Source of the DNA: Candidatus Rifleibacteriota bacterium
Lineage (GTDB): Bacteria > Muiribacteriota > Ozemobacteria > Ozemobacterales > Ozemobacteraceae
DNA: 64,000 nucleotides
Direction of reading: 5' to 3'
Assembly: GCA_024710525.1 (NCBI GenBank)
Contig: JANJUP010000022.1
Location: 128,001 to 192,000, forward strand
Below are positions 1,734-31,567 of the stretch, piece by piece. Below the pieces are notes generated by a model, which made no database searches, was not told where the DNA came from, and saw nothing but the letters and a program-made list of their open reading frames with translations. The position numbers were made by a program, and so were the translations under genes. Position 1 is the first letter of the stretch. Every line of letters starts with the position of its first letter.

Positions 1734-1885
1734 TTTGCGCTCCTTGTGATTATTAACGTTTTATATTTCCGCCGTGGCACTCCATCGGATAAACCCGGAA
1801 ATGAAGGGGAAAAAGCTGCAACCATCTTAAACGAAGTCAGTCAGATTTGCCACCGCTTCAGGTCGTTTGCCTGTTTTGCCGGTAT

Positions 1886-1914
1886 TTGCCCGCGCTCGAT
1901 TAAAGCGATATAAT
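1886..1914 (+). promoter_or_regulatory. Candidate sigma70-type promoter (TTGCCC-17-TATAAT) for the secreted-protein/RND operon
   Basis: A perfect -10 TATAAT sits at 1909-1914 with a 4/6 -35 match at 1886-1891 and a 17-bp spacer, about 30 nt upstream of the ATG at 1945. Confidence 0.4.
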
Positions 1915-1944
1915 CAGTTCGTAAAAATCGTTGAAGGGGTCTTT

Positions 1945-2538: not shown

Positions 2539-2618
2539 TTTTAGCCCTGTTTGCAATGTTGTAATACTTCGTGTTATTTTAGCCGATGATAAATTAAAAT
2601 CTCAATCGAGGTCGAAGA

Positions 2619-7042: not shown

Positions 7043-7084
7043 ACAGGCTTTTGCATATTTAAAATCTAAAACGGAGGAATTTCA

Positions 7085-7678: not shown

Positions 7679-7703
7679 GTTGTCTGTGTATATTGAAAAC
7701 CAG

Positions 7704-7732
7704 GCCGTCAGCAGCGCTGACGGCTTTTTCTC
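7704..7732 (+). terminator. Rho-independent terminator after rbr (gccgtcagc-agc-gctgacggc + TTTTT)
   Basis: GC-rich 9-bp stem followed directly by a T run, 26 nt after the rbr stop. Confidence 0.7.
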
Positions 7733-7849
7733 TATTCTGGGTTAGGTTCCCGCCTCCGCGGGAATGGCGGAAAACTGTGTAAATCTTTTTTGACGGTAGA
7801 TTAGCAATACGCACTGATTTCTGAGAAACTTCTGAACGCCGGGGTCTGC

Positions 7850-10804
7850 ATGAAAAGTGCCAGCACAGACACTTCCACTAATATTTTTGTCAGGTTCAGG
7901 CTGCTGACCTGGCTGGGAGCGTTTTTCTGTTTCGTTCTGGTGCCGGCTCTTCTGATAAATGAAGCGCTGGGCAGCATGCTGCAGCTGCGCAGCGACAAGG
8001 AGCGCCGGCAGCTGTTCAAGGAAATGGATGACCGTCTCAGCTACCTGACCCGGCACGCTGATGAATCGCATTATTACCATTCGCTGCTGAAAAATGCCTT
8101 CAAAAAAGCTTCGCAGAGCGCGCGACCCCTCGATGAGTTTGCCGGCAGCATTGAGTTGCTGCGCCGGCGGTTTCCCGGGGCGCTCAGGTTTATTGTCTGG
8201 GATGCAGATGGCCGGGTGGTGGACCGGCTTACTGACGAGAAGAGCTATCGTTACATCGTCAACAACCTTTTTGAGTTTTTCAGGGAGATTGCAGGTCATT
8301 GCCGCAGCAATTACCCGGGTGAGCCCGAACAACTGACGATCGTCGAAAAGCGCATCAACCTCTTCAGGTCATACCTCGGGCGTTTTCTGGTTCCGCATCA
8401 TCTCAGACTGCCTTTCCAGGCAGGCGAACACGGCCGCTGCGTGCTGGCCGACAGCTCAGATGGTTTTCCGCTCTTCTGGTTTGATTCAAACAGTTCGCTG
8501 ACGGTTTTTTGTGCGATAAAAAATCAGCTGTTCCGTAATCCTGGTGTCAGGCACGCGGTCGAGGTGCTCAACCGGCCAGATGATCCCCTGAAGTGCGGGT
8601 TTATCGAAATGGGTGATGTCGGTCGTAAAATTGTCGGCATCAGTGATGCCGAACAGCGCCAGGTTCTTCTCGAACTCGGAAAATTCGAGAACGCTGGCCT
8701 GCCGCACCGGCAGACAGACGATTATCTCATGGCTTTCAAGCTGCTTTCGCCAGATCTGCGAGGCTTCTGTCTCGTGCATCGCGGCGCGCTCAGGCTTGGC
8801 TACCCCGATCGGCGGCGTTACGAAATTCTTACCCGGCTTTTTCTGGTCATAATCCTTATTTTGTGGGTGTTTTACTGTTACACACTGCGTTTGCCGAGAC
8901 TGAGTGTTTCGATACGCACGCGTATTGCCTTTTTGTTTCTCTACGCGAATGGTCTGCCGCTGATGATTCTCGGTACTATCGGCTATGAATATCTGCAGCA
9001 GCGCGAAGACGCGTTGATCGGCGAGGTGCATGCCCGTAATGAAAGGGTTCTTCAGGAAATCGACTCGGGCTATCGCCGTCACAAAATTGCGATGAATCGG
9101 CGCACTTTTGCCGAACTCGACAGTTTTTGCCGTGAAGTGCAGACGCGACTGCCAGGGCGAAACGATTACGAAAGGCTGAAACAAGCCGTGCATGCGCTTG
9201 ACGCTGAAGAACTCACGATTTATGGCGAAAGCGGTGATACGATCGTGGGCTACCGGCGTAACCGCAAACCGGCCGGCCAGACCTTCATGCGGATGTTTGC
9301 CACAAGTGCGATAGCCTTTGCCAATCAAACCGAAGAGACCTTTTCATTTGGCGGCCGCGACGGAAAGTCGCGCCTGGCGATCACCAGTAATACCATTGTT
9401 AATGACCACCGGTCGCTGCTCGAAAATCTTCTCAATACCCTCGATTCGGTCGAGCTTTACAGCTTTGGCACCGGGCTGAAACTTTGTTTTGCGCGTCTTC
9501 TCGGAGACCATATCGGCAGAAATATTCATTCAGCAATGGTTATAACCTGGGATCTCGAAGAGACCGAGGCAATTTACGCTGCCCAGCAGGTCGAACGCGG
9601 CAATGAAAACCGCAGCGAGAAAGCTTTTGCCGCGATTTCGGCGGTGACCGGTCAGATGTTTTCGCGGCCGGGCATGCGCGAAGAGACCCTGAGACGTGTT
9701 ATGCAGAAGGCAATGAATATTCAGTCGGCCCACGAAAATTATGTGTTGCTGCAGGGAAAAAGCAGCCTGATCACTGCTATCGCGGGCCGCCAGATGGGCA
9801 GCATCGCTCTGGCTGCCATTGTGCCGGCTGATCAGATCGTTGCTGAACTCGAGGCGACCTGGCAGCAGATGCTGGCGCTGGCGCTGCTGAGTATTTTTAT
9901 CATCAGTGCGGTCATTACCGCTTTGAGCCGGCAGTTTCTCAAGCCTGTCAGGCAGCTGGCAGAAGCGGTCAGGCAGATAGGTCAGCGCAATTTTTCCTAT
10001 CGAACCAGTATTGAAAGTCTCGATGAGTTCGGCGAACTCGGTGGAGTCTTCAATATGACGATGGAAGGCATGGCCGAGCTTGAAATCGGCCGGATCGTTC
10101 AGGAAGCCCTGTTGCCCGATCAGGGGTATCATAACAACAGAATCGGCATCTTTGCCAGAACCGCTACCATGACAAAACTCGGCGGCGACTATTATGACTA
10201 TCTGAAGCTTTCAGAGACGCAAACCGGTGTATTCATGGGCGATGTCGCCGGGCACGGTATTCCGGCCGCGATTATCATGGCGATGGCCAAGGCGACGGTT
10301 CTCGTTAACCGACCCCTTCTCACTGACCCGGCGGCTCTGCTTTCTGCGCTGCATGATATGCTTTTCAGACTTAAAAGTGACGGTTTTAAACGTATGATGA
10401 CCTGTCAGTATCTGGTAATCAACGATCAGACCGGTGAAGTGCAGATTGCCAATGCCGGGCACTGTTTTCCGGTTGTGGTTGGCAGTAACGGCAGCTATTC
10501 AAGAATGGAAGAGATTATCGGTACTCCGGTCGGCATCGCCCGCAAGGCGCGCTATAAAAACCACCAGATACAGCTGCAGCCGGGTGAAACACTGATTCTT
10601 TACAGCGACGGGCTGATCGAGGCGACCAGTGCTGCCGGCGATGTTTTTGGTCCTGATCAACTGCTTGAGCTGGTAAAAAGTGTCTGGAGCGAGAATCTCG
10701 AACAGTTCTATCAGAACCTCTTTCAGGCAAACCGTGCCTGGGTTAAGTCGGTAGATGACGACCTGACAATTGTTCTGGTCAGGTTCGAAAGGAGCAGCTG
10801 CTGA
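7850..10804 (+). CDS. Membrane sensor protein, subtype A: 4 TM, two extracytoplasmic domains, HAMP, PP2C/SpoIIE Ser/Thr phosphatase (paralog A1)
   Basis: 984 aa. Hydrophobic segments lie near residues ~20-40, ~325-345, ~355-375 and ~680-700. A HAMP-like linker (...DEFGELGGVFNMTMEGM...) precedes a PP2C/SpoIIE domain (GDVAGHGIPAAIIMAMAK...YSDGLIEA...DDDLTIVLV). Stop overlaps the start of the next gene (TGATG). Confidence 0.85.
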   Translation: MKSASTDTSTNIFVRFRLLTWLGAFFCFVLVPALLINEALGSMLQLRSDKERRQLFKEMDDRLSYLTRHADESHYYHSLLKNAFKKASQSARPLDEFAGSIELLRRRFPGALRFIVWDADGRVVDRLTDEKSYRYIVNNLFEFFREIAGHCRSNYPGEPEQLTIVEKRINLFRSYLGRFLVPHHLRLPFQAGEHGRCVLADSSDGFPLFWFDSNSSLTVFCAIKNQLFRNPGVRHAVEVLNRPDDPLKCGFIEMGDVGRKIVGISDAEQRQVLLELGKFENAGLPHRQTDDYLMAFKLLSPDLRGFCLVHRGALRLGYPDRRRYEILTRLFLVIILILWVFYCYTLRLPRLSVSIRTRIAFLFLYANGLPLMILGTIGYEYLQQREDALIGEVHARNERVLQEIDSGYRRHKIAMNRRTFAELDSFCREVQTRLPGRNDYERLKQAVHALDAEELTIYGESGDTIVGYRRNRKPAGQTFMRMFATSAIAFANQTEETFSFGGRDGKSRLAITSNTIVNDHRSLLENLLNTLDSVELYSFGTGLKLCFARLLGDHIGRNIHSAMVITWDLEETEAIYAAQQVERGNENRSEKAFAAISAVTGQMFSRPGMREETLRRVMQKAMNIQSAHENYVLLQGKSSLITAIAGRQMGSIALAAIVPADQIVAELEATWQQMLALALLSIFIISAVITALSRQFLKPVRQLAEAVRQIGQRNFSYRTSIESLDEFGELGGVFNMTMEGMAELEIGRIVQEALLPDQGYHNNRIGIFARTATMTKLGGDYYDYLKLSETQTGVFMGDVAGHGIPAAIIMAMAKATVLVNRPLLTDPAALLSALHDMLFRLKSDGFKRMMTCQYLVINDQTGEVQIANAGHCFPVVVGSNGSYSRMEEIIGTPVGIARKARYKNHQIQLQPGETLILYSDGLIEATSAAGDVFGPDQLLELVKSVWSENLEQFYQNLFQANRAWVKSVDDDLTIVLVRFERSSC

Positions 10805-13788
10805 TGAAAATTCTGCCGCGCTATCTGCTGCTCTGGTTTGCCCAGATATTTCTGTTCGTGCTGATTCCGGTTCTGCTTTTTTATGGCGGTTTCAGCCATA
10901 TTGAAAAACTTCGCAGCACTGCTCTGGTAAAAATTGTTGAGCAGAGTCTCGAAAACGAGATGCAAAGCTTTGAAGCTCAGGTTGATACTGAGAGGTTTTT
11001 GTCGCGGCTGTTTCGTGAGACTTATCACGCAAATCGGGTGGCCTCGGCCGCTTTAGCCTTTGGCGAACTGCACGCCAGGCTGAATGGCTCGTTCGATTAC
11101 CTGCTCTGGGATGATTCAGACAGCTTTATTGGCGGCTCGATACAGCCAGATGCACTTTCTGGCGACTGGAGCCTGGCCTTGAATTCTCTGAAGAAGCCTT
11201 TCAAAAAAAGTGACAGAGAAGTCGTCGCCGATGAAAATGAAATGACAAACCTGAGAAGAATGTTTGGGCCGCAGATTGTGCTGCATACGGTCGATAACTG
11301 TGTTTCTGAACGTGGTGAAAAGCTTCTCTGGTGTGACAGCACCGGCCGTCGACCATTGCTGTGGGTTGGTTTCAGGCTTGGCTACATGGCGGTTATTCTG
11401 GTAAAACCCGAAAATGCTGCCGGAACTGCCGGTCTGGAATATTATCTCAAATATCGTCAGTCAGAAAAAAGCATTTTTCGCCCTGGTTTTGTTAAAGGCC
11501 AGAACTGGGTTGCAGCACAATCGCTGCCGGATAACCCGGAAAATCTGCAGAAGCTCATCAGGCACGAAATGATGCCTGGTGAACGTCTCGAGACCGACAG
11601 GGCGTTTTATTATGCCAGAGTTATTGAAGATGATCTGACGCTGTTTGCTTTTGTTGAAAAGGCTGCTGGCGTAGTGCCCGAGCAGGCGAAAGCCAGCCTG
11701 GCGGCATTGCTTGTTTTTATGCTGCTGTTGCCGTGGGTGGTTGTCAGCGGACGTGCCGCTCTCAAGGGCAGCGGATTGAAAATGTCGATTTCGCGCAAAC
11801 TGGCGCTTTTGTTCGTTTATGCGAATGGTCTGCCGCTGCTGATGCTTTTCTTTGCCGGTTATGACTTCATGCATCAGAAAGAGCTGGCCCTTTACGACGA
11901 GATACATCAGCAGGGAACACATTTTCTGCAGAACCTCGATGAGCGATTTGAATCGGAGCATGCGCTGCAGATTGTCAATATTCAGGCCGGGCTGGATAAA
12001 TTCAGGGCCGATGTGCGGCAGCAGGGGCTGAACCTTGAAAATTACCGGGCTCTGGTCGACAAGGTATATTCGGTCGTTGAATCGCGTGGCAATGTGCGTT
12101 TTTATCTGATTGCCAGCGAAACCGATATTTTTGGAACCGGCGATTCGCTTTATGTCGGCGACAAGCGTCAGGCGCTGGTGTCAGAGATTATTGACAGTGC
12201 CGACCTGAGGCGTGGCGATGAAAAAAAAGTGCTTAATTCACTTGGGCGTTTTATCATGGCCAGTCTTAATGGCCGACCGCCTGACCCGCGTTCTTCGACC
12301 GAAGTCGAATTGATTGCCGAATCGGCGATGCAGAAACCTCTCATCGAGGTGCAGCATGATTTTATCGCCAATAACGGCAAAATTGACGTGTGGGGCATGG
12401 GTACCAACAAAAGCCCGGCCTGTCTGAATCTGATTTCGATCAATGACGACCGGCAGGTAGACTACATGGGCATTGTCAACTGGAACCCGCATGTCATGGA
12501 GAACCTCTATCTGAAACGGCAGTTTCTCAGCGCCAATCGCAATATCATCGACCTGAAGGTGGGGGTTATTCATGAAGTTGCCGGGATTTTCCTGCCCGAA
12601 AAATTTCCGGACCGTGAAACCATGGTGAAACGGGTACGCAGCTTTACTTCAAAACCTTGCCCGTCCCGCGAATTTGTCAGCATCGGCACGCAGACTTATC
12701 TGTTGATGGGTTTTACCGGCAGATATCTGACCAATTATCAATTATTTGGGCTGTATCCGGTTGATAAGGTAAAAAGTCAGATCAGTCGTGAAAAAACAGG
12801 CCTGTTTTTTGCCGGTCTCGTATCTTTACTGATAACCATAATACTTGGACAGTTTCTGGCGCAGAGTTTTCTTTTTCCTTTGCAGAAGCTTTACGCCGGT
12901 GCTGAAGCAATCAGATCGCGAAACTTTGCGCTGCGACTGCCGTTTCTCGGTCGCGACGAATTTGGCGAAATGGCTGAGATATTCAACACAACGATGGTCG
13001 ACCTTGAAGAACTGCAGGTCGCCGGGGTAATTCAGGAACATCTGCTGCCCCGTCAGATGCCTGAGTGCGGGCGTTTCAGGGTTTTTGGCCGTATCGTTTC
13101 GATGGGCGAGCTCGGCGGTGATTATTTCGATTATTTCAATACTTCTGCCGGGCGCTTCAGTTTGCTGATCGGTGATGTGGCCGGGCGCGGGGCCGGCGCG
13201 GCCTTGATCATGGCGATGGCCAAAGCTGCAATAATGCAGTTTTCAGATGTCGTAGAGAAACCGCAGATTCTCGCCATGCGTTTGCACGAGCTGATTCAGG
13301 CGGCTGGCAGAAGGACCCGCAAGACGATGATCATGCAGTATCTCAATCTCAACGGTGCCGACGGTACCGGAGTTTACACCAATGCCGGAGGCTGGCCGCC
13401 GTTGATAGTTAATCCACGTTCGGGCGCGGTTCGCGAGATTACTCTGCCCGGCCCGATGCTGGGGGCATTGAACCGGCCGAAGTTTGGTGCCGCCGAAATT
13501 TCTCTGCAGCCGGGCGAAGCGGTGATTTTTTACAGCGACGGGGTGATCGAGGCACGAAACATGGCCGGCGAAATTCTCGGGCTTGCCAGGCTCAAACAGA
13601 TGGCGGTGCATTGTTTCGACGCCGAGCCGCAAAAATACTTTGACAGGCTGCTTGAGGCGCATCGTGAATTTGTCGGCGCTACCAGGGCCCAGGATGACAT
13701 GACGCTGCTGATCGCCATTTTTGGCGACCAGCAGCATTCAGTTGATGCTAAACCGGCTCAGGCTGACGTTGTGACTGAGGCCGTCTGA
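10804..13788 (+). CDS. Membrane sensor protein, subtype B: 4 TM, HAMP, PP2C/SpoIIE phosphatase (paralog B1)
   Basis: 994 aa with the same architecture as A1. Subtype-B signatures: HAMP ...LGRDEFGEMAEIFN..., phosphatase GDVAGRGAGAALIMAMAK. The 3' end overlaps a convergent membrane-protein gene by 31 nt. Confidence 0.85.
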   Translation: MKILPRYLLLWFAQIFLFVLIPVLLFYGGFSHIEKLRSTALVKIVEQSLENEMQSFEAQVDTERFLSRLFRETYHANRVASAALAFGELHARLNGSFDYLLWDDSDSFIGGSIQPDALSGDWSLALNSLKKPFKKSDREVVADENEMTNLRRMFGPQIVLHTVDNCVSERGEKLLWCDSTGRRPLLWVGFRLGYMAVILVKPENAAGTAGLEYYLKYRQSEKSIFRPGFVKGQNWVAAQSLPDNPENLQKLIRHEMMPGERLETDRAFYYARVIEDDLTLFAFVEKAAGVVPEQAKASLAALLVFMLLLPWVVVSGRAALKGSGLKMSISRKLALLFVYANGLPLLMLFFAGYDFMHQKELALYDEIHQQGTHFLQNLDERFESEHALQIVNIQAGLDKFRADVRQQGLNLENYRALVDKVYSVVESRGNVRFYLIASETDIFGTGDSLYVGDKRQALVSEIIDSADLRRGDEKKVLNSLGRFIMASLNGRPPDPRSSTEVELIAESAMQKPLIEVQHDFIANNGKIDVWGMGTNKSPACLNLISINDDRQVDYMGIVNWNPHVMENLYLKRQFLSANRNIIDLKVGVIHEVAGIFLPEKFPDRETMVKRVRSFTSKPCPSREFVSIGTQTYLLMGFTGRYLTNYQLFGLYPVDKVKSQISREKTGLFFAGLVSLLITIILGQFLAQSFLFPLQKLYAGAEAIRSRNFALRLPFLGRDEFGEMAEIFNTTMVDLEELQVAGVIQEHLLPRQMPECGRFRVFGRIVSMGELGGDYFDYFNTSAGRFSLLIGDVAGRGAGAALIMAMAKAAIMQFSDVVEKPQILAMRLHELIQAAGRRTRKTMIMQYLNLNGADGTGVYTNAGGWPPLIVNPRSGAVREITLPGPMLGALNRPKFGAAEISLQPGEAVIFYSDGVIEARNMAGEILGLARLKQMAVHCFDAEPQKYFDRLLEAHREFVGATRAQDDMTLLIAIFGDQQHSVDAKPAQADVVTEAV

Positions 13789-14996
13789 CTCTCGGTGCTG
13801 TTGTCTGCGGGTTTTTCGCCATCAGGGTTATCATCACTGCCGTTGCGGCTGAGGCTGAAGAAAAAACCGGTGAGCAGCAGAACGAAAGAACCCGACATCA
13901 GAATGCCTGCCCACGCCGTGCGCGACAGTGACGAGCCATAATCGACGGCTACTTTTGCGCCGGTCATCAACTGCTGACCGGCGTGCCACAGGCCGGTAAG
14001 GGCGAGAACCCCGGCATTGACATGGTTGCATCGGGTGAGCCAGGTTGCCACAAGGCCGGCAACAAGCAGAGCGTGGTTAATCAGCACCGGAGCACTGAAA
14101 TCGGGTGCTGAAGCCTTGATGATGATCAGATAGACAAGCATGACGGTGCTGTCGTGAATGTTGATGTTATCGCGTGATCCGAGGAGATGGCGCCAGAGGG
14201 TCTGGGCGAAAAAAGCGGCAGCCAGCAGCCACGGCGCGATGATTGTTCCGATTGACAGAGTCGGGGCGATGAATCTGTAGGAGTCGCTCATGACTGTGGC
14301 ACTCATCTGCAGGGGCAGCACGACGAACGGAAAAATCAGCAGCCAGCGCCAGAACGTCGTTTCATTGCCGAGGTATTCATTGGCAACTTCGGTCTTGAGG
14401 TTGTTGTTACGCCAGTTTTCGATGATCAGGGGCAGGTGAATCAGCGCTGCGATGAGCCAGAGTGAATAAAAGACGTATGAGCCGTCAAAATAGCCGAAGC
14501 TTTCTCTGCCAATTGAATCGACGAGATAATAACCGACTTTCGGGGCGACCCAGATCAGCGAAAATGCCCCGGCGGCGAAGAACAGGCGAGTGTGATGCAC
14601 TGTCAGGCCAAGAACTTTGATGACCGCTGCGAGTTTAACCGCCGCCATCAGCATGTAGACGCCGGTGGCGATACCGCCGGCTGCGGTGCTGAGACCCGAG
14701 ATACGCACCTGATAAAAAGTCAGGTCACCGAGAAAAAGCAGCACGAAGAAGAGCAGCAGTTTGCCGTGCTGTGGCTGAATCTTTTTCTTGAGCAGATACA
14801 GAGCCATTGCCACCATGATAATCTCGTAGATATTCTGAACCAGAAAAAAGCCGCTTACTGCCAGGCTTGAAACTTTGCCGGTTTCAAGCTCTGAGCCGAC
14901 GAGGTAGAGACCGCCAAGCATGAGAACGACGCTCAGCAGATACAGGGGGTTGTTGTTTCTGAACCATTGTGACAGCCCGTTTGCGTTGCCGCTCAT
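13758..14996 (-). CDS. Polytopic integral membrane protein (about 10-12 TM), unknown function
   Basis: The six-frame ORF runs 13758..15092. The internal ATG at 14996 (MSGNANGL...) has a strong RBS (GGAGGTG, 6-nt spacing) and is preferred. The protein is very hydrophobic throughout. It sits between sensor pair 1 and pair 2 on the opposite strand. Confidence 0.6.
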   Translation of the reverse strand: MSGNANGLSQWFRNNNPLYLLSVVLMLGGLYLVGSELETGKVSSLAVSGFFLVQNIYEIIMVAMALYLLKKKIQPQHGKLLLFFVLLFLGDLTFYQVRISGLSTAAGGIATGVYMLMAAVKLAAVIKVLGLTVHHTRLFFAAGAFSLIWVAPKVGYYLVDSIGRESFGYFDGSYVFYSLWLIAALIHLPLIIENWRNNNLKTEVANEYLGNETTFWRWLLIFPFVVLPLQMSATVMSDSYRFIAPTLSIGTIIAPWLLAAAFFAQTLWRHLLGSRDNINIHDSTVMLVYLIIIKASAPDFSAPVLINHALLVAGLVATWLTRCNHVNAGVLALTGLWHAGQQLMTGAKVAVDYGSSLSRTAWAGILMSGSFVLLLTGFFFSLSRNGSDDNPDGEKPADNSTESQTASVTTSA

Positions 14997-15173
14997 GACG
15001 CACCTCCAGCAAATAATGAATAATAAAGGGGGGAATAATAATGATAAATTGTACAGCGCAAAGAATGTGCCAACTTGAAACCCTTTATTCAAGCAGGTTT
15101 TTGCAGAACGACCGCGTCGTTTGTGTCATGGGTGCGGCAGTTATGTCGCATCAGGCAATTTAAATCAGAAACT

Positions 15174-15201
15174 TTGCAAGTTGCCGCTTTTGCGGTATGC
15201 T
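15174..15201 (+). promoter_or_regulatory. Candidate sigma70-type promoter TTGCAA-16-TATGCT for the second sensor operon
   Basis: Good -35/-10 match. The -10 overlaps the upstream-most ATG (15197) of the A2 six-frame ORF, which argues that A2 really starts at 15233. Confidence 0.45.
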
Positions 15202-15232
15202 GTCTGCATCTGCAGGTCGTTTAAGGGAATCA

Positions 15233-18193: not shown

Positions 18194-21100
18194 CAAAATC
18201 CCGAAAAATCACCGGCTGGCTTGCATTCATATCCTGTTTTATCGGAATCCCGGGCTTTTTACTGCTGTTCGGCATGCTGTATCTGCAAAACCAGGACACT
18301 GAAAATCGCCTTGAAAGCCAACACCAGAAATTGCGTGATTTTTACCTTGAGTTGAGGAAATTTGCCGACCCGCAATATTACTGGTGTACTGCGTTGATGG
18401 AAAAGCTGGCTCCAGATTCTGTGGCCAGCGAAGCTTCGGCCATCAAAGAGCCAGGCGCTGTCGCCGAGGTTGTCATTGCCCGTCTGAAAGATTTGCGGCG
18501 CAATCTGAAGTTTAACTACGTTGTTTACACTCCGACGCGAGGGGTTTTGGCGTCTTCTTTTCCTCTTGAGCCTCTCGAAGTGTGGAAACCCGGATTAAGC
18601 TTCACCTGGAAAGTGATTCAGTCAGGCAGGTCACAGGTTTCACACGAAGAACAGGTCGCCGGGGGCAAAATTTTCGGCCCGCAGCTTTACTGGGGACATT
18701 TCGACAGTAATATTTCAATCGGCAGTCTCTATCTTATCTGGGGTGACAGCAGTTTCAAACGGCCGCTGGCATGGGGTCGAATCATTCACCGTCATCTGGT
18801 GCTGGCTTTTATAGATATTAAAGATCTCAAGGGAAATGATGGCATTCTGAATCTGTTGAACGAGTTCAGCCAGAACAGCGGTCATCTGTGGCGTTTTTCA
18901 CTTCAGGATGATGCGCATGGTTTCAGGCATGGAACGGGCGAGCGCAAAGTTGCCCGGCAGGTTGAAGCCGCTGCCGACGAATACGGCAAGCACAAGACCC
19001 AGAAGATCGAAACTGAAGACCTGATGGTCTACCCTTTCTTTCTCAGGCCGGGTATCAAGGTCTACGGTTTTATCGAAAAAAGCCGGTTTTCGAGCAGTCT
19101 GGTGCCTGGCTACGCATGGTCGGTGGTTTTCCTCTTCTTTGCCGTGGCTTATCTGCTGGCCGGCTATGCATGGGGACTTTTCTTCGGTGACCGGCCCGAT
19201 GACCTGTCGCTGCGCTGGAAACTGCGTTTTCTCTTTTTCTTCGCCAATGGTCTGCCGCTGCTGGTGCTATTTTTTATCGGTAATGACTATCTGGCACAGA
19301 AGCGCAGCAACCTGATGCTCGATGCACACAGCCGCGGCATCGGCTTCATTCAGGATTTTGACGAAAAAATCGAAGTCGAGTATGCCCGCCGTCTTGTCGG
19401 CAAGAAAAAAGCCCAGGAAAAAATGATCGAAAAGCTTACGCTTAACATGAATGATGACCAGGCGTTGCAGGAATTTGTCGACACACTCGGGTCAGACGGT
19501 ACCGAGAGATGGAAAATCGTCATGGTTGCAAGTCGCAGCAATACCATTGTCACCGAGAAGGGGGTCTATGACGAAAGCCGCAATCTCAGCCCGAAAGAAG
19601 ATGAGCAGAGGGCTGAGCGCAGTCGCAACCAGAACGAATTGACCCGCAAAATCGGGCAGTTTTTTCTTGATAAAATCAATGGTGTCGAGGTTTCAGAAAA
19701 GGTTCAGACCGAGCTTGAGCTGTTTATCGAGTCGACAACTCAGCAGCCGCTGGCCAATTTTCTCTTCGATCTGCTTCAGAAACGCGGATCGTTCATTCAG
19801 TGGGGTTTCGGGCAGAACGTCAACCCGGCCATTTTCGACACGTTTTCTCTCAAGAACAGCAGTTCTCAGGATCTCTTTTTTCTTTCGTCATTTGGTGTTC
19901 ACCTGTTTCAATATAATTATCTGCTGAAAGCTGTGCCACAGGCTAACCGCAACAATATCGGCCTGAAGCTGGTGGCTCTGATGAACCAGGAATACACCGT
20001 TCCGCGTGAGGCTTACAATAGCGCCGCTCTAAGGGAATTCGCCAACTCTCTCACTTCTTACCCTGGCAAAGAGATCAAGATCGTTGATTATCTTGGCGAA
20101 AAGCATCTGGCAATGGGTATAGCCGGCAGACATATCAAGGACTTCCGCCTGATCGGACTTTACCCGCTCGAAAAAATCGATAATCTCATCGATTCGCAGC
20201 GCCGACAGCTGCTGCTGTTCGCCTTGCTCAGCCTGTTCATGACCTGGGGCCTGTCACAGGTTCTGGCGCAAAGCTTCATTCTGCCCCTGCAGCAGATTAC
20301 GGCCGGCGCCCACGCAATCGAAAACAAGCACTTCAGTCATCGTTTGCCCGATCTGGGGCGTGACGAGTTCGGTGCCATGGGGCGGGTGTTCAACTCAGTC
20401 ATGGTCGACCTCGAAGAGCTTTCGGTCGCCAGCGCCATTCAGGAACAGCTGCTGCCACAGCAGCAGATCGAAACCGGCAATTTCAGTCTGTTTGGCAAAA
20501 GTGTTTCGATGGGCGAACTTGGCGGTGACTATTTCGACCACATCGAGCTTGCTGACGGAAAATTTTCGGTACTGCTCGGCGACGTGGCGGGGCATGGCGT
20601 CGGCGCCGCCCTGATCATGGCCATGGCAAAAGCAGGCATCATTCAGTCAGAACATCTTCTCGATCAGCCTCTGGCGCTTGTTGCCAGGCTGCATGGCCTG
20701 ATTTTTGCCTCCAAGACAAAAAAACAGAAGAAAGTCATGACTTTTCAGTATTTGTGCCTTGATGGCACTGCCGGGCGCGGCATCTACTCGAATGCCGGGG
20801 CCTGTTCGCCAATGATTGTCAGAAAAAATGCGGGGCAGGTCGAGGAGCTGACTCTGACCGGTGCGGCTCTCGGTGCCTTTAAAAAAGCGAATTATTCTGA
20901 AACCGAAGTGGTTTTTAACCCGGGTGATGCGATTGTATTCTATACCGACGGTATTGTCGAAGCGCGTAACCGCAACGGCGAAGAATTGGGCTACGATCGT
21001 CTGAAGCAGCTTCTGCTCGAAACCTGGAATATCGATGCCGAGGTTTTTTATCACAACGTTTTCAATGCCTATCTCAGGCATATCGGCGACGAAGGGGCCC

Positions 21101-21210
21101 AGGACGACCTGACAATGGTCATTCTGGTATTCGATCCGCAGAGAACCAGGGGAAGCACCCCACCCGCCGCCGCCAGCCCGTCCAGTCCCGAGGAGGCCGG
21201 CAATGGCTGA
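18190..21210 (+). CDS. Membrane sensor HAMP-PP2C/SpoIIE phosphatase, subtype B (paralog B2)
   Basis: 1006 aa. The GTG start overlaps the A2 stop (GTGA). Subtype-B motifs: ...LGRDEFGAMGRVFN..., GDVAGHGVGAALIMAMAK, KKVMTFQY. Confidence 0.85.
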   Translation: MTKSRKITGWLAFISCFIGIPGFLLLFGMLYLQNQDTENRLESQHQKLRDFYLELRKFADPQYYWCTALMEKLAPDSVASEASAIKEPGAVAEVVIARLKDLRRNLKFNYVVYTPTRGVLASSFPLEPLEVWKPGLSFTWKVIQSGRSQVSHEEQVAGGKIFGPQLYWGHFDSNISIGSLYLIWGDSSFKRPLAWGRIIHRHLVLAFIDIKDLKGNDGILNLLNEFSQNSGHLWRFSLQDDAHGFRHGTGERKVARQVEAAADEYGKHKTQKIETEDLMVYPFFLRPGIKVYGFIEKSRFSSSLVPGYAWSVVFLFFAVAYLLAGYAWGLFFGDRPDDLSLRWKLRFLFFFANGLPLLVLFFIGNDYLAQKRSNLMLDAHSRGIGFIQDFDEKIEVEYARRLVGKKKAQEKMIEKLTLNMNDDQALQEFVDTLGSDGTERWKIVMVASRSNTIVTEKGVYDESRNLSPKEDEQRAERSRNQNELTRKIGQFFLDKINGVEVSEKVQTELELFIESTTQQPLANFLFDLLQKRGSFIQWGFGQNVNPAIFDTFSLKNSSSQDLFFLSSFGVHLFQYNYLLKAVPQANRNNIGLKLVALMNQEYTVPREAYNSAALREFANSLTSYPGKEIKIVDYLGEKHLAMGIAGRHIKDFRLIGLYPLEKIDNLIDSQRRQLLLFALLSLFMTWGLSQVLAQSFILPLQQITAGAHAIENKHFSHRLPDLGRDEFGAMGRVFNSVMVDLEELSVASAIQEQLLPQQQIETGNFSLFGKSVSMGELGGDYFDHIELADGKFSVLLGDVAGHGVGAALIMAMAKAGIIQSEHLLDQPLALVARLHGLIFASKTKKQKKVMTFQYLCLDGTAGRGIYSNAGACSPMIVRKNAGQVEELTLTGAALGAFKKANYSETEVVFNPGDAIVFYTDGIVEARNRNGEELGYDRLKQLLLETWNIDAEVFYHNVFNAYLRHIGDEGAQDDLTMVILVFDPQRTRGSTPPAAASPSSPEEAGNG

Positions 21211-24136
21211 GATGTCAGAAAACCGGCCAGCTGAAGCTTCGAATCTCCGCTCTCTGAAAAATGCGGTGTCGTTGCTGGTTCTGATCTTCTGTTTTCTGGC
21301 TTTTCCGCTTTTCATAATTTTTTCGGCACTGAACAATCTCTATCAGGTCAAGATTGGTAATTTGCGACAACAGAAGCTTGACCAGATGCACGGGCGCCTC
21401 GAATACCTCGAAAAATACAGCAATAATGGCAGATACTTGCATTTTCTGCTGCTGCGCCTGGCGGAGAACGCCGAAAAAGCAGTAGTTCCGGCGGATTTTC
21501 TCAAAGCGGCATTTGTAAATCTGCATCAGCGCTACCCCGGTGATTTCGAATTCATTGCCTGGGATGCAAAAGGCGTGGTGATCAGAGAGCTTACCGATCA
21601 GAAAGGTTTCAGCTACATTCTTGCACGCCTTTATGAGGTGCTGCGGGATGTTTCTGAAGCCGTCAGCAATGACAGCCAGGTTGACATCAGCAATATCAGG
21701 TCGGTAAGCAAGAATCTCAACCTGGTCAGGCAATTTCTTGGCAAGATTTTTATTCCTGAGTATCTTAAAAAGCCTTATCTGCAGGGCAATGATGCCGGTC
21801 CGTTGCTGACCGACTTTGCCGGCAGATTCTCTTCGGTGTGGTACCGGGTTGGCAATCGCATCAGCTTTTTCTGCTTTATCAGCGAAAAACTGATGAAAAA
21901 CAGTTCGGGGCTCTTGAAAATTGCTGATTCTCTCAATTCCCGCCAGGATGGCATCATATCTGGATTCAGCATCAGCCCTGACTTTTCGCTGCCGGCCAAT
22001 CAAGTTGACGAGCGATTTATGCCGGCGCTGAGCCTGGCCCTGTCACAGTTCGAAAATGTTTCTGAGCCTGTTTTCGAGAACGATCAGGCCCTTGTCTGCA
22101 TGAGCATGCCTGAGCCCGGACTAAGAACTTTTTGTCTGCACCCAAAAGAACCGGCGCAGTGGTCGGTTGAATTGAACCGTGACATGGTGTTTGTCAGAGT
22201 TTCGGTTCTGCTGTTCGCCTTCTATCTGTTTTTATATATTTATTTTCGTTTCAAGCAGCAGTTTTTCTCAATCAGCTGGAAACTCACCGGCCTGTTTCTT
22301 TTTGCCAATCTGGCTCCCCTAAGTATTCTTGGTTTTATTGCGCATGACTACCTGATCAATCGCAAGCAGGCGCTGCGTAACGAGATTGCCTCAGATCTCA
22401 GCAAGCTGATGCGTGATTTCGACATGCGTTATGCTTCTCTCAAATATGATTTTGCGCGCGAGATTACCAGCAAGATCGAAAAGGTTGCGGCGGCGGGTAT
22501 GAATGGCAGTTTGAGTTCAGCCGAAATTGCGGCCATTAAAGGGGCGATGCGCGAATTTGTACCGTCAGATGCATATATGATTGCCAGCGGTGGCATGGTG
22601 TTTGCCGACCATCTGGCAGGTGAAAAGGATAAGTCTGACTTTAACTTCATTGAACCGATGGGGCAGGCGATTCTTCAATTCTGTAATGGCACAATTCTGA
22701 AGCGAAACAAAGAAGATATGTTCAGTGCGATCATGTCGCCCGAAGATTCTGATTTTGTCAGAAAAATCTATCGTGACCAGCGCCAGGTAATTCCTCTCAA
22801 TATGGCGAACATAAAAAAACTCAGTTACTGGCATATCTTTGGCGATCGACGCAATTACCAGAACAATTATTTCCTGATTCTCTTCTGGGATGAAGACCGA
22901 TTTCAGGAGCTTTACATCAACCGTTATTTTGAAAGTCTGCAGGCAAATTCTTTCGGAGCCCCTCTTTTTGCCCGAAAAATCGATGGCAAAAAGACCTGGG
23001 CGCCAGCCGGAGCCTTTCCGGTCGAGCTGGCGCGGCAGATGGAAAGAACCACCGGTTTTCGCGAAAACCTTATCGGCAGCGTTATCATTGCCGATCAGCC
23101 ACACCTTTTCGTCGGGCTGAAGGGGCGAAGTCTTAATTTTAACCTGCTGGCGGCTCTTTATGCCGACAGCAGGCTCGATGCAAGAATTGCGGCTCTGCGG
23201 TTCCGAATCATGACAGGAGCTTTTCTCAGTCTGCTGTTGACACTGATTATCGGTCAGGCGCTGTCGCGGCAGTTTCTCACTCCGATCCGCAACCTCGCGC
23301 AGGCAACCCTGGCGATTGGTGCCCACAATTTTGCCCATCGCATTCCGGTTGTCGACGAAGATGAGTTCGGGCATCTGAACCAGGTTTTTAATCGGGTAAT
23401 CGAGGGACTTGGCGAGCTGGAAGTTGCCAAAATCGTTCAGGAAAGCCTTTTTCCGGGTAACAACTTTGCCGCCGGCCGATTTTCGATTTACGGGCGAAGT
23501 GTTGTAATGACGACACTCGGCGGCGATTATTACGACTGTCTGCAGATAAATAAAGACCATTGGGGTCTGGTTATCGGCGATGTCGCCGGTCACGGCGTTC
23601 CGGCCGGTCTGATGATGGCTATGGCCAAGGCAAGCGTTCTGATGGCGCCTGAAAATGAGAAAATGGATGCTGCCGTTCTTACCAGCAGGCTGCATCGCAT
23701 GTTTTTTGCGATCAAGAATGATCGGCTGAAACGCATGATGACGTTTCAATATTATGTTCTGCGTCCTGCTGACGGGCATTTTTCGTTTGCCAATGCCGGG
23801 CACTGTTTCCCGGTGGTAGTTAAGCCGGCAGAGAAGAGCGCTGAGCTGATAGAGCACATTGCCACCCCTCTCGGAATCGGGCCTAGAGCCAGGTATAAAA
23901 ACTTTGAGTTTACGATCGCGCCGGGTGAATCGCTGCTGCTCTATACCGACGGTATTGCCGAAGCCAAAAACAGCGAGGGCGAGGAGTTCGGTTATGAGCG
24001 TCTCAGACAGTTATGTCTCGACGCCTGGGACCGCGACCCGGAAACCTATTATCGCCGCATTTTTGCTGCTTATGAACAGTGGTCGGCCCGACCTGATGAC
24101 GATCTTACGATAATCGTGGTGAATCATGATGCCTGA
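21203..24136 (+). CDS. Membrane sensor HAMP-PP2C/SpoIIE phosphatase, subtype A (paralog A3)
   Basis: 977 aa. RBS GAGGAGG. The start overlaps the B2 stop by 8 nt. Subtype-A motifs: GDVAGHGVPAGLMMAMAK, KRMMTFQY. Confidence 0.85.
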   Translation: MAEMSENRPAEASNLRSLKNAVSLLVLIFCFLAFPLFIIFSALNNLYQVKIGNLRQQKLDQMHGRLEYLEKYSNNGRYLHFLLLRLAENAEKAVVPADFLKAAFVNLHQRYPGDFEFIAWDAKGVVIRELTDQKGFSYILARLYEVLRDVSEAVSNDSQVDISNIRSVSKNLNLVRQFLGKIFIPEYLKKPYLQGNDAGPLLTDFAGRFSSVWYRVGNRISFFCFISEKLMKNSSGLLKIADSLNSRQDGIISGFSISPDFSLPANQVDERFMPALSLALSQFENVSEPVFENDQALVCMSMPEPGLRTFCLHPKEPAQWSVELNRDMVFVRVSVLLFAFYLFLYIYFRFKQQFFSISWKLTGLFLFANLAPLSILGFIAHDYLINRKQALRNEIASDLSKLMRDFDMRYASLKYDFAREITSKIEKVAAAGMNGSLSSAEIAAIKGAMREFVPSDAYMIASGGMVFADHLAGEKDKSDFNFIEPMGQAILQFCNGTILKRNKEDMFSAIMSPEDSDFVRKIYRDQRQVIPLNMANIKKLSYWHIFGDRRNYQNNYFLILFWDEDRFQELYINRYFESLQANSFGAPLFARKIDGKKTWAPAGAFPVELARQMERTTGFRENLIGSVIIADQPHLFVGLKGRSLNFNLLAALYADSRLDARIAALRFRIMTGAFLSLLLTLIIGQALSRQFLTPIRNLAQATLAIGAHNFAHRIPVVDEDEFGHLNQVFNRVIEGLGELEVAKIVQESLFPGNNFAAGRFSIYGRSVVMTTLGGDYYDCLQINKDHWGLVIGDVAGHGVPAGLMMAMAKASVLMAPENEKMDAAVLTSRLHRMFFAIKNDRLKRMMTFQYYVLRPADGHFSFANAGHCFPVVVKPAEKSAELIEHIATPLGIGPRARYKNFEFTIAPGESLLLYTDGIAEAKNSEGEEFGYERLRQLCLDAWDRDPETYYRRIFAAYEQWSARPDDDLTIIVVNHDA

Positions 24137-27116
24137 AAAAAACGAAAAGCAAGCATTGCAGCCGTTCGGTCGCTTTATGGGCTGGCTGCTGCTGGTTGCC
24201 TGTCTGGCCGGAATTCCGGCGATTCTGGTTTTCACGGCCGCCTCAAGATTCTACCAGGTTTCTGAAGACGAGCTCGCATTCAAACTTAAAATGCACATGC
24301 AGCAGGCAACCAACGAGGCAATGCGCAACACCAGCCAGGAAGAATTCTGGTGCCGGCATCTGCACCAGAAATTTGTCGAATTCATGGAAACGAATGCCTC
24401 TGCGGCAGTGGTAATCGAATGGCTGCATGATCAGCGGCGGCTTTTTCCGGAAGAGATTGACTTTATATTCTGGGATGGCAACGGCAATCAGCTGACGAAG
24501 ACCTTTACAAGCGACTTCTCGGAGGCTGAGTGGCGTGAGGTGTTCTGGACTTTGAGCGATTTTGGGCCGTATCTTATGAATGTACCTTATCGCAATCCGC
24601 AACGTAGCAATATAGAGACGGCCCGCAGGGTTCTCGGGCCGCAGACGCTCGGGGCAATGTTTTCGAGCGTGACTGACCCGCGCGCTTATGCCCTGGCCTG
24701 GGTCGACAGTTCGCAGCTGCGGCCGCCGGTCGGGGCCTATTTTATCGGTTGCGGTGGAGCGGTTGTGCTGCTCGACCACCGACATTTTTCGAAATTTTCC
24801 GGGTTGAAGCATTCAATCAGGGCGCTTGCATCAGATACCGGCATGCCTTTTGGGGTTATCGACAGTTCTGGTGATACTGCGGTTATCTGGCGCACCGATG
24901 GTCTTGATACAACTGATGATCTGCGGCAGGCTTTTTCAGAATGTGAAAAGCGCAGCCTCAATTATTACGAGCTTGCGGAACAGCATCTTGGCTATCAGTA
25001 TCTCAGCCCCGGTCTGCGGCTTTTTGTCGTTGTGCCGCGGCTTTATACATGGTCGGGTATCGTCTGGCGGTCGATGTTGGCAGCTTTTGCCTGTCTGGTT
25101 CTTCTCTGGCCATTTTTTCGCTATACCTGGCTGACGATGATCAGGCAGCAGCCTGGCAGTGCCTCGATCAGGAACAAGCTGGCGTTTCTTTTCCTGTTCG
25201 CTGCGGGCATACCGCTGCTGGCAATGGCTATTATTTCGCAGGAACATTATTTGCACAAGCGACACACTCTTATGGTTGCGGCACATCAGAATTCTGTAGA
25301 GCTGTTACTGAGCTTCGACCGGCGCTATTCGTCGTTTCTCAAAGATGTCGGGCTCGACCTCGACAGGTTTTTTGCCGGCTGGAGTCTTGAGGCCCGCAGC
25401 ACGGAACTCGATGACCGGTTGACAAAGATGGTTGCAAGCTATCTGTTGAAGTTTGAGACCGAAAATTTCTTTGTGATAGCGAGTGAGAGCCGCGTTCTTG
25501 CGGCTCGAGACGGTTTTGTCGTGTATTCAGGTTCCATGGAAGACATCAAAATCAATCATGAGAATTCAAGGCTTAAGAAGAGTCTTTCTAAATATGCTGT
25601 AGCCGATATTCAGACGGCAAATCTGGTTGGCAAGAAGGTAATGAGCGATCTGAACCGTGTTGAAATCCCCGGGCAGATTCTCAGTAAAATCGAGCTTGTC
25701 GTTGAATCACTGCTACAGAGAACATTTATCGAGATTACCCATTCTATTATCGACAATATCGGAAGCATCAATCAATGGGGATTTGGCTATCTCAAGGATC
25801 TGACCTATTTCAGATTTCTTTCTGTCGCCGGGCACGAAGTTACCGATTATCTGACCATGGTTTTCTGGAAACCGCATGTCATCCAGAGGGCATTTTTGCG
25901 CAGGGCCCTGCCTCTGGCGAACCGTAATTCGGACGGTTTTAAACTGCTGTCTTTCGATCGTCTGAAGGCAAGATTTGTCGATGAATCGCCTGGTTATGAC
26001 AATGCTCTGGTTGAGTTTGCGCGTCGGGCAGGCCAGAAACCGACTGAAGAGATAGAAATTGTCAGGTTGAACGGTGAAGACTATCTGGCTGTCGGTTTCA
26101 GCGGGCGTTACCTCGAATTTTATCAGTTGATCGGGCTTTATCCGATGCGCAATATCGACCGTATTATCAGCGGCCAGAAAACCGATCTGCTGTTGTTTGG
26201 CCTGTTCAGTATTCTTCTTGCGGCTGGTCTGGCGCAGTTGCTGGCCCGCGCCTTTGTCGAGCCTCTCGGTGTGCTGCGCGAGGGGGCTCTGGCGATCGAA
26301 AACCGCAATTTCAGCCACCGTATCCGAAATGCCGGGCGCGATGAATTTGGTGAGGTGGCCGGCATTTTTAATCACATCATGGTTGGATTCGAAGAGCTTG
26401 AGGTTGCCAGAATCGTCCAGGAAAGCCTGTTCCCGAAACCTGATTTTGAGATGAACCGGTTTCGTCTGTTTGGGCGCAGCGTTTCGATGGGCGAGCTGGG
26501 GGGAGATTATCTCGACTTTTTCAAAGTCGATGAAACCGGTTTTGTGGTTCTGATGGGCGATGTGGCCGGACATGGAGTTGGTGCGGCTCTGATCATGGCG
26601 ATGGCCAAAGCCGGCATTCTCAGCAGTGGCGAGCAGCTGGCATCGCCAAAAACAATTCTGAACGGGCTGCATCAGATGGTGCTTGCCTCAAAGAGCAGTC
26701 GACAGAAGAAGGTAATGACCTTTCAGTATCTTTATATGAACAGTGTTACCGGTGCCGGGCTTTATGCCAATGCCGGCGCCTGTTCGCCACTGGTTTACCG
26801 ACGTTCTGCGGGCATTGTCGAGGAACTCAAACTTACGGGTGGCGCACTTGGAGCTTTTAAAAAGGCTGTCTTCAATGAGATGCCGGTGCTGCTCGCCTCT
26901 GGCGATGCGGTTATTTTTTATACCGATGGCATCGTTGAATCGCGTGACCGCAGTGGCAGAGAGATTGGCTACGAGGGCCTGCAGCAGATGCTTGTAGAAA
27001 GTTACGATGCTGACCCGGCAGTTTATTATCAGAACATTTTTGCCCGTTATGCGAAACATATCGGCGGTCAGGAAGCGCAGGACGACCTGACTTTTATCAT
27101 CATGACATGTTTGTGA
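24126..27116 (+). CDS. Membrane sensor HAMP-PP2C/SpoIIE phosphatase, subtype B (paralog B3)
   Basis: 996 aa. The start overlaps the A3 stop by 11 nt. Subtype-B motifs: ...AGRDEFGEVAGIFN..., GDVAGHGVGAALIMAMAK, KKVMTFQY. Confidence 0.85.
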   Translation: MMPEKNEKQALQPFGRFMGWLLLVACLAGIPAILVFTAASRFYQVSEDELAFKLKMHMQQATNEAMRNTSQEEFWCRHLHQKFVEFMETNASAAVVIEWLHDQRRLFPEEIDFIFWDGNGNQLTKTFTSDFSEAEWREVFWTLSDFGPYLMNVPYRNPQRSNIETARRVLGPQTLGAMFSSVTDPRAYALAWVDSSQLRPPVGAYFIGCGGAVVLLDHRHFSKFSGLKHSIRALASDTGMPFGVIDSSGDTAVIWRTDGLDTTDDLRQAFSECEKRSLNYYELAEQHLGYQYLSPGLRLFVVVPRLYTWSGIVWRSMLAAFACLVLLWPFFRYTWLTMIRQQPGSASIRNKLAFLFLFAAGIPLLAMAIISQEHYLHKRHTLMVAAHQNSVELLLSFDRRYSSFLKDVGLDLDRFFAGWSLEARSTELDDRLTKMVASYLLKFETENFFVIASESRVLAARDGFVVYSGSMEDIKINHENSRLKKSLSKYAVADIQTANLVGKKVMSDLNRVEIPGQILSKIELVVESLLQRTFIEITHSIIDNIGSINQWGFGYLKDLTYFRFLSVAGHEVTDYLTMVFWKPHVIQRAFLRRALPLANRNSDGFKLLSFDRLKARFVDESPGYDNALVEFARRAGQKPTEEIEIVRLNGEDYLAVGFSGRYLEFYQLIGLYPMRNIDRIISGQKTDLLLFGLFSILLAAGLAQLLARAFVEPLGVLREGALAIENRNFSHRIRNAGRDEFGEVAGIFNHIMVGFEELEVARIVQESLFPKPDFEMNRFRLFGRSVSMGELGGDYLDFFKVDETGFVVLMGDVAGHGVGAALIMAMAKAGILSSGEQLASPKTILNGLHQMVLASKSSRQKKVMTFQYLYMNSVTGAGLYANAGACSPLVYRRSAGIVEELKLTGGALGAFKKAVFNEMPVLLASGDAVIFYTDGIVESRDRSGREIGYEGLQQMLVESYDADPAVYYQNIFARYAKHIGGQEAQDDLTFIIMTCL

Positions 27117-29876: not shown

Positions 29877-29895
29877 GACAGCAGAGGAACAGCAG

Positions 29896-31533: not shown

Positions 31534-31567
31534 CTAAATCTGTTGCGGTGGGTCGGCGTTTGCAATT

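Follow-up and report, generated by a model that had tools for sequence, protein, structure and literature searches.

The stretch of DNA analysed here (the window) comprises 64,000 nucleotides (nt) of a Candidatus Rifleibacteriota genome (GenBank assembly GCA_024710525.1, contig JANJUP010000022.1, positions 128,001 to 192,000). It carries an array of six co-directional genes whose products, of 977-1006 amino acids (aa), share one architecture, as the original prediction had proposed. They are putative sensor phosphatases of two subtypes, A and B, which alternate as three A-B pairs (Table 1). A1 and B1 overlap by 1 nt (TGATG), A2 and B2 by 4 nt (GTGA), B2 and A3 by 8 nt and A3 and B3 by 11 nt, an exact match to the stop/start overlaps that had been claimed. 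All six products recur unchanged in the gene calls of another public assembly (GCA_024710195.1, contig JANJVH010000143.1), and the samples SRR19748630 and SRR19748631 contain the locus.

A hydropathy scan finds four hydrophobic helices per protein, at about residues 10-45, 300-350, 335-385 and 665-705. The N-termini and the loops between the second and third transmembrane (TM) helices are rich in lysine and arginine, indicating an N-in topology with two domains of ~290 aa on the outside. The HAMP domain (PF00672) begins 0-3 residues past TM4 in all six proteins, with Pfam E values of 1e-7 to 1e-11 (31-43 bits against a cutoff of 25). The C-terminal domains match the SpoIIE/PP2C family PF07228 over its full 192-position model (E 6e-33 to 5e-41; 115-141 bits against a cutoff of 25), and no Pfam family other than these two is recognised. 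The metal-binding acidic residues (GGDxxD, GDVxGxG, TDG and DD.T) are present in all six, and these, together with the Pfam matches, confirm the proposed PP2C/SpoIIE identity of the C-terminal domains. Domain matches and topology prediction show each gene to encode a transmembrane receptor phosphatase that runs, from an N-terminus inside, through TM1, a sensor, a TM2-TM3 hairpin, a second sensor, TM4, HAMP and a short helix to a SpoIIE/RsbU-type PP2C domain of predicted activity.

Table 1. Coordinates of the genes and features in the window and in related loci of other genomes (locus handles beginning with L; nucleotide positions unless residues are given)
Feature	Location	Strand	Remarks
Terminator-like hairpin	7702-7726	+	11-bp stem with 7 G-C pairs and a T-rich tail; between the rubrerythrin gene and A1
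A1	7850-10804	+	984 aa, subtype A; HAMP 692-737, SpoIIE 789-979 (residues); catalytic residues complete
B1	10804-13788	+	994 aa, subtype B; GDVAGRG; without the NAGH histidine
Polytopic membrane protein gene	13758-14996	-	412 aa; between B1 and A2; no Pfam match
A2	15197-18193	+	998 aa, subtype A; layout in residues: TM1 28-46, outside domain 1 ~47-334, TM2 335-353, TM3 367-385, outside domain 2 ~386-683, TM4 684-702, HAMP 702-753, PP2C 798-989
Best-conserved sensor-half stretch in A2	~16275-16355		residues ~360-386
B2	18190-21210	+	1006 aa, subtype B; GTG start
A3	21203-24136	+	977 aa, subtype A
B3	24126-27116	+	996 aa, subtype B
lexA	27187-27810		70 nt past B3; position kept in HGW-Riflebacteria-2
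Block downstream of lexA	28434-33252		FHA-GAF-GGDEF protein, DUF2325 coiled-coil protein, ECF sigma factor, 369-aa protein without Pfam match
cheB	40718-41872	-	receiver and methylesterase
cheB-cheR	40718-42642	-	span of both genes
253-aa ORF	45652-46413	-	no Pfam match; upstream of the ftsA/ftsZ/mur cluster
794-aa ORF	46876-49260	-	no Pfam match; upstream of the ftsA/ftsZ/mur cluster
L010, syntenic block	1893-6699		HGW-Riflebacteria-2
L019, STAS gene	6763-7155	-	beside unpaired family member
L019, HEAT-repeat protein gene	7444-9972	+	
L019, phosphatase gene	9980-12805	+	unpaired family member
L032, trio	9509-15329		STAS, phosphatase and HEAT-repeat protein in direct succession
L017, trio	16733-19625		unpaired member, STAS and HEAT-repeat protein
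L025, trio	5309-8153		unpaired member, STAS and HEAT-repeat protein
L034, trio	824-3337		unpaired member, STAS and HEAT-repeat protein
L021, untyped pair	8981-14895		adjacent, overlapping
L028, untyped pair	8096-13763		adjacent, overlapping
L029, untyped pair	395-5627		adjacent, overlapping

The outside domains are not recognised by family models: within residues 1-680 of the six proteins no Pfam family, Cache and PAS included, reaches E<=0.01, and NCBIfam likewise returns nothing. AlphaFold2 models were built from ortholog alignments for residues 1-705 of A2 (pLDDT 80) and 1-695 of B2 (pLDDT 84), and in both each outside region consists of a long helix followed by two alpha/beta modules. The dCache fold is defined by a helix and two PAS-like modules between TM helices, and in the models both outside domains accordingly resemble tandem-PAS/dCache-like sensors. 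They differ from known members of this group (LuxQ, Tlp3, PscC, KinD, PctD and DctB) in having no Pfam Cache match and only 6-14% identity, and in that two such domains stand in series in one chain, joined by a TM hairpin. LuxQ-like domains bind a periplasmic binding protein and not a small-molecule ligand in a PAS-like pocket. Domains 1 and 2 show a weak similarity that is full-length and collinear (hhalign; up to 92% probability, E 7e-7), which suggests an old internal duplication of a TM-sensor-TM unit. The best-conserved stretch of the sensor half, S(I/L)RWKL..LF(L/F)(Y/F)ANGLPL, is common to A and B and covers the cytoplasmic TM2-TM3 loop and TM3, with equivalents in all six proteins.

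In a search of 1.84 billion representative proteins with a profile of this sensor half (residues 1-705), the hits formed 772 clusters (50% identity) at E<=1e-3, 563 of them at E<=1e-10. Almost all have a length of 940-1000 aa, and this near-uniform length points to the same architecture throughout the family. The named members that were checked are all from Riflebacteria and bear the annotation 'SpoIIE family protein phosphatase' or 'hypothetical protein'. The identity of homologs to A2 and B2 falls from 98-100% to ~40%; the named ones are almost all Candidatus Riflebacteria/Rifleibacteriota, the exceptions being one Clostridiales and one Erysipelotrichia label that are taken as mis-binned metagenome-assembled genomes (MAGs). 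A genome scan was made with an A2-ortholog alignment whose patterns fell in PP2C, and about 50 of its 80 loci held unrelated SpoIIE proteins of other phyla, with matches confined to residues ~680-990 or, at the widest, roughly 610-990 (HAMP and PP2C). The sensor half thus appears to be essentially confined to the Riflebacteria phylum, and to this architecture alone.

Full-length identity amounts to 29-33% among the A proteins, 31-34% among the B proteins and 23-27% between A and B. The A/B split has 100% bootstrap support in a neighbour-joining tree of 53 proteins from the loci and is also found in a neighbour-joining tree of 112 family proteins, bearing out the two clean subtypes and their strict A-B-A-B-A-B alternation. 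The subtype motifs originally described are essentially right, except that A1 has LRFIVWD in place of (F/V)RFI and B3 has AGRDEFG in place of LGRDEFG. A recent duplication or an assembly artefact as the origin of the array is ruled out, as the paralogs are only 23-34% identical. Unpaired members of the family occur in Ozemobacter and other lineages and branch beside A in the tree of 53 proteins and outside A+B in a further tree. They carry the A-type signature (P815, mostly H881 and a complete catalytic set). Under either rooting this indicates that A keeps the ancestral state and that B is derived. Three loci (L021, L028 and L029) hold adjacent overlapping untyped pairs that lie outside the A and B clades, and the pair in L021 looks like a recent tandem duplicate. 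The proteins of L028, L029 and L030, which have G or S at position 815 and Q at 881, may be a second, independent pair type.

The family open reading frames (ORFs) in the fetched loci were typed with hidden Markov models (HMMs) of A and B. About 12 genomes contributed 14 loci, in which 24 pairs were typed. The order is always A then B in the same direction, without exception, so that the pairs are syntenic in every genome examined. The A-to-B junctions of all 24 pairs overlap or leave a gap of at most 3 nt, whereas the B-to-A spacers are loose, measuring -35 to +194 nt and as much as 1409 nt in the window. Arrays of the form A-B-A-B-A-B (HGW-Riflebacteria-2), A-B-A-B (six loci, including Candidatus Rifleibacterium amylolyticum and two rumen MAGs) and A-B (five loci) were found. 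A seemingly lone B in L024 follows the C-terminal end of an ORF of type A, and no typed B lacks an upstream A.

In the window the array is flanked by RND efflux genes and rubrerythrin upstream and by lexA downstream. The six-gene array of HGW-Riflebacteria-2 has the same flanks (RND pump, membrane-fusion protein and rubrerythrin on one side, lexA on the other), with ~50% identity to the window proteins. At this divergence the triplication must be old and not a local event. The same genome carries at least two more pairs on that contig, one before its FHA-GAF-GGDEF gene and another after glgB, both absent from the window, and at least 13 family members are found in its loci L005, L010 and L011 (the last an A-B-A-B array on a second contig). 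A more distant genome (L003) has the A2-B2 pair alone in an unrelated context. The A2B2-A3B3 tetrad, fused in the window by the 8-nt overlap, is contiguous in two rumen MAGs too.

In the bootstrapped tree the A orthogroups and the B orthogroups comprise identical loci. The A3/B3 group (window, L005, L007 and the second pairs of L006 and L013) and the A2/B2 group (window, L003, L004, L005 and the first pairs of L006 and L013) are each supported at 100 for A and 100 for B, and a third group (L010, L014 and L016) at 99 for both. The A1/B1 group of the window, L004 and L005, joined to both Rifleibacterium-type pairs, has a support of 63 for A and 88 for B; L012 is basal in the A and B trees alike. 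Since the two trees mirror each other, the pairs were duplicated as units, which directly supports the earlier proposal of an ancestral A+B module amplified as such and makes the amplification ancient. The evolutionary and predicted functional unit is shown by these comparisons to be an A gene with its translationally coupled B gene. This pair apparently has a single origin, within Riflebacteria, from an ancestor that was unpaired; its duplication as a pair then gave the six-gene array of the window. A simple tandem expansion of lineage-specific paralogs, in which the alternation is an accident of duplication with no functional meaning, is very improbable. It could draw on the great expansion of the family, the number of members in HGW-Riflebacteria-2 and the recent tandem duplicates of L021. 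Yet A-then-B order, coupling and mirrored trees persist in pairs that are only 25-50% identical and lie in unrelated contexts, and a B without its A was never met. Pair synteny and the bootstrapped tree largely refute this explanation, and the view that the array is no random paralog expansion holds.

The two partners conserve different parts of the molecule. Among A2 orthologs outside domain 1 is 51% identical vs 40% for domain 2, and among B2 orthologs the values are 33% and 50%, respectively. This preference, domain 1 in A and domain 2 in B, has the same direction in eight of eight matched A/B ortholog comparisons and in the window paralogs. Type-specific positions defined by a 75%/15% rule cluster in domain 1 for A and in domain 2 and TM4/HAMP for B; a strict rule of at least 85% in both types gave one site, R858/K848. 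The start of PP2C helix alpha1 reads GHG(V/I)P in A and the unpaired relatives and GHGVG in B.

The catalytic sites differ as well. Residues D790, D793, D808, H812, D930, E934, D980 and D981 are kept in 24 of 24 A proteins and in all unpaired relatives. The NAGH histidine (H881) is replaced by Gln in four of the A copies and by Gln or Asn in five untyped relatives. In B it is lost in 20 of 24 proteins, among them all three window copies, and H812 is substituted in 8. At the Rifleibacterium-type loci L008, L009 and L011 both B copies have lost metal ligands (D793A/E, D930G/A, E934R/G/L and D980N/F), and in the second B of L009 nearly all are gone. Between species the PP2C domains at these loci are 26-36% identical in B vs 59-72% in A, while domain 2 (48-54%) and TM4 with HAMP (64-74%) of the same B proteins are still conserved. 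A sensor and HAMP that are kept while their own output decays imply that B needs the output of its partner. In the lineage of the window the B catalytic domains are intact and conserved.

The losses in B could also mean that it serves as a pseudo-phosphatase-like decoy or adaptor, binding a phosphosubstrate or another partner without turnover in the manner of the PP2C-like domain of RssB and so opposing or buffering A. Among solved structures RssB (3eq2) is the nearest in sequence, and in NCBIfam it ranks second to SiaA for three of the six proteins; the frequent loss of H881, the H812 substitutions and the complete disappearance of metal ligands in some lineages would all suit such a role. 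Against this, the metal sites of the B proteins in the window lineage are intact and conserved, and where sites are lost the entire PP2C domain drifts, which is unexpected of a decoy that must bind substrate. The decoy explanation is thus considered improbable.

HAMP is an obligate, parallel dimer. In RsbU-type proteins the PPM domain is switched through an alpha0-alpha2 dimer fed by crossing helical linkers, and the same is predicted for a HAMP-PPM protein (PMC12143880); SiaA-PP2C also crystallises as a dimer (PMC7647112). The preferred reading of the pairs, held at roughly an even chance, is that A and B make up one heteromeric (A:B) receptor phosphatase whose targets are partner-switching proteins of the STAS type with genes outside the window. 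A and B would assemble 1:1 as a heterodimer through the HAMP and PP2C dimer interfaces. A would contribute sensor domain 1, which is the one conserved in A, and a catalytic site that represents the ancestral state and is intact throughout. B would add sensor domain 2 and HAMP, the parts conserved in B, together with a catalytic domain that is altered or, in certain lineages, dead, and so would act mainly as co-sensor and regulator. Binding of a ligand or partner on the outside would be transmitted via TM4 and HAMP to the PP2C dimer and set the phosphatase activity. Its likely substrates are STAS-domain proteins of partner-switching type that are phosphorylated on serine and have their genes in other parts of the genome. 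What speaks most for a heteromer is that the constrained sensor and HAMP of B outlast its decaying output next to an intact A. The 'heteromeric sensor' of the original prediction is thus an inference backed by the asymmetric conservation of the domains and by B catalytic decay in some lineages. A more specific form is put forward tentatively, at somewhat below an even chance. Here a homodimeric double-sensor PP2C would have split into a catalytic A and a co-sensory or regulatory B that drifts towards a pseudo-phosphatase. The two would form an obligate heterodimer in which each keeps a different outside domain, and multiplication of this receptor would have given the phylum a set of asymmetric receptors of its own, feeding a STAS/HEAT partner-switching network.

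A substrate lead comes from the unpaired relatives. A small-ORF sweep for STAS proteins was made over 476 kb of Riflebacteria loci. A STAS gene and a gene for a HEAT-repeat protein of 700-840 aa lie beside unpaired family members in L017, L019, L025, L032 and L034, and a HEAT-repeat protein gene without STAS accompanies an unpaired member in L027. No further domain is recognised in the HEAT-repeat protein, which may take the role of an anti-sigma kinase as the partner in the switch. In addition, a weak STAS homologue lies 1.8 kb past an A/B pair in L010; BLAST relates it to the L019 STAS protein with an E value of 2.5e-15, whereas Pfam does not call the ORF. Its jackhmmer E values are inflated by iteration and were not relied on. 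All six STAS sequences, that of L010 included, align with SpoIIAA and RsbV and keep the serine column that is phosphorylated there (Ser58 in SpoIIAA and Ser56 in RsbV). The substrates, said earlier to be unknown, are thus not wholly so, in that unpaired relatives are linked to STAS genes.

Several observations weigh against the heteromeric reading and its STAS substrates. No STAS, RsbW/SpoIIAB-type (HATPase_c) or Hanks-type kinase gene is found in the 64-kb window, where a STAS HMM returned nothing at E<=10, and the window has no gene for a HEAT-repeat partner. The claim that it lacks RsbV/RsbW-type genes, kinases and response regulators therefore stands for STAS, RsbW-type and Hanks-type kinase genes and fails for response regulators, since a CheB receiver protein is present. 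CheR, an ECF sigma factor and an FHA-GAF-GGDEF protein are encoded there as well. Among the neighbours of typed pairs (92 ORFs at 12 loci) there is no recurrent STAS, kinase or anti-sigma gene and no recurrent HEAT-repeat partner. The only repeated neighbours (RNase PH, Ham1 and CheW) come from orthologous contexts, and kinases among the neighbours elsewhere are hybrid histidine kinases alone. The substrate assignment is accordingly an extrapolation from the unpaired relatives. The HAMP domains show no obvious charge-complementary A/B positions. The trees are neighbour-joining and midpoint-rooted, and the place of the unpaired clade differs between two of them.

The strongest objection is that B looks catalytically competent in the window. 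B2 and B3 have every metal-binding residue, and the PP2C domain of B2 is 77% identical to that of HGW-Riflebacteria-2. Judged by its residues, B in the window may be a fully active phosphatase acting as its own homodimer, which makes two co-regulated homodimers a live alternative. A and B would then be separate homodimeric sensor phosphatases, co-translated for a common substrate, and would integrate different signals without any A:B contact. Both types have the complete architecture, and HAMP proteins and SiaA-PP2C are homodimeric by default. Separate homodimers would, however, leave unexplained why the B sensor and HAMP are conserved when B catalysis decays beside an intact A (L008, L009 and L011), why conservation of domains 1 and 2 is complementary, and why A-to-B junctions are tight and B-to-A junctions loose. 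This alternative is therefore regarded as rather unlikely, if a serious contender.

The functional mode of the pairs appears closest to that of SiaA or of membrane RsbU-type sensor phosphatases. SiaA of the Pseudomonas aeruginosa SiaABCD system is, like the proteins described here, a membrane sensor with HAMP and a dimerising C-terminal SpoIIE/PP2C domain. Five of the six proteins have it as their best NCBIfam match, and the solved structures nearest in sequence include SiaA-PP2C (6k4e). The matches to the SiaA equivalog NF038263 cover HAMP and/or PP2C only and reach 28-72 bits against a cutoff of 700, so the window proteins cannot be classed as SiaA. With its two TM helices and single periplasmic region, SiaA contrasts with the four TM helices and two tandem-PAS-like domains found here, and it is a single gene adjoined by siaBCD, whereas the A/B pairs have no SiaB/SiaC-like neighbours. 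An FHA-GAF-GGDEF gene does lie 1.3 kb downstream of the array, in a context that is not SiaD-like. SiaA dephosphorylates the small partner-switch protein SiaC at phosphothreonine 68 (PMC7647112).

RsbU, RsbP and SpoIIE of Bacillus and the membrane-bound RsbU of Chlamydia belong to the same PPM subfamily, PF07228. The chlamydial RsbU also has a periplasmic Cache-like sensor. RsbU-type control runs from an N-terminal sensor through a helical linker to a phosphatase dimer (PMC12143880), and STAS substrates are plausible here too. The pairs differ in having no RsbU_N domain, and genes of the rsbV/rsbW/sigB type are found neither in the window nor among the neighbours of typed pairs. Known RsbU-type members are single genes acting as homodimers, in contrast to conserved A/B paralog pairs with a doubled outside sensor. 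The RssB protein keeps a PP2C fold for regulation, and 3eq2 is the closest PDB sequence match to the cytoplasmic part of A2. RssB is, however, a soluble response regulator and adaptor, whereas the B proteins are membrane sensors that keep their metal ligands in the window. An analogous arrangement is known from ABC half-transporter pairs such as BmrCD and PatAB, adjacent co-transcribed paralogs derived from a homodimeric ancestor, with one consensus and one degenerate site (PMC4046567, PMC9541285). The family and function are unrelated, and heterodimers are demonstrated there and inferred here. Literature searches yielded no paper dealing with this family, with PPM phosphatases that are paired or heteromeric, or with signalling in Riflebacteria, in line with the statement that the paired arrangement is no described system. 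Three features are without counterpart in the family models and literature searched: the doubled tandem-PAS sensor on four TM helices, the co-duplicating A/B pair and its catalytic asymmetry.

The surroundings of the array add some further observations. The strong hairpin upstream of A1 is the top-scoring site of a promoter/terminator scan in which nothing else stood out, and it implies that A1 opens a new transcription unit; the predicted units are A1-B1 and A2-B2-A3-B3. The 412-aa gene between B1 and A2, the sole break in the array, is convergent with B1, shares the last 31 nt of B1 and is called in GCA_024710195.1 as well. The orthologous spacers of HGW-Riflebacteria-2 (94 nt) and L004 (~190 nt) lack this gene, which indicates a lineage-specific insertion that split the array. 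A DinB/IMS-type polymerase gene follows lexA in HGW-Riflebacteria-2, and no such gene follows lexA in the window. The block downstream of lexA has a syntenic counterpart in HGW-Riflebacteria-2, where its first three proteins are 67-75% identical and further A/B pairs lie on both sides. Its 369-aa protein is possibly an anti-sigma factor. The FHA domain binds phosphothreonine, and a diguanylate cyclase with this domain beside Ser/Thr phosphatases could reflect a functional link. The cheB and cheR genes have no cheA, cheW or chemoreceptor gene with them in the window; close to the A-B-A-B arrays of Rifleibacterium type (L008 and L011), however, CheW genes are found repeatedly. Two ORFs without a Pfam match lie upstream of the ftsA/ftsZ/mur cluster.

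Riflebacteria form an uncultivated phylum found in aquifers, the rumen and wastewater reactors. The work defines a large sensor family of this one phylum, whose members have until now been annotated merely as 'SpoIIE family protein phosphatase' and whose sensors are invisible to Pfam. A lead to its pathway is given by the STAS and HEAT-repeat proteins beside the unpaired relatives. HAMP-PP2C sensor phosphatases are common and poorly understood; in current models they are homodimers, and a helical linker and the phosphatase dimer determine their output. If the heteromeric reading is true, the conserved A/B pair would show that such a dimeric switch can be divided between two specialised subunits. 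In its more specific form, that of an obligate heterodimer, it would give the bacterial PPM family its first heteromeric sensor and a bacterial parallel to active/inactive receptor pairs. The pair would offer a natural system for how asymmetry in a HAMP/PPM dimer controls activity.

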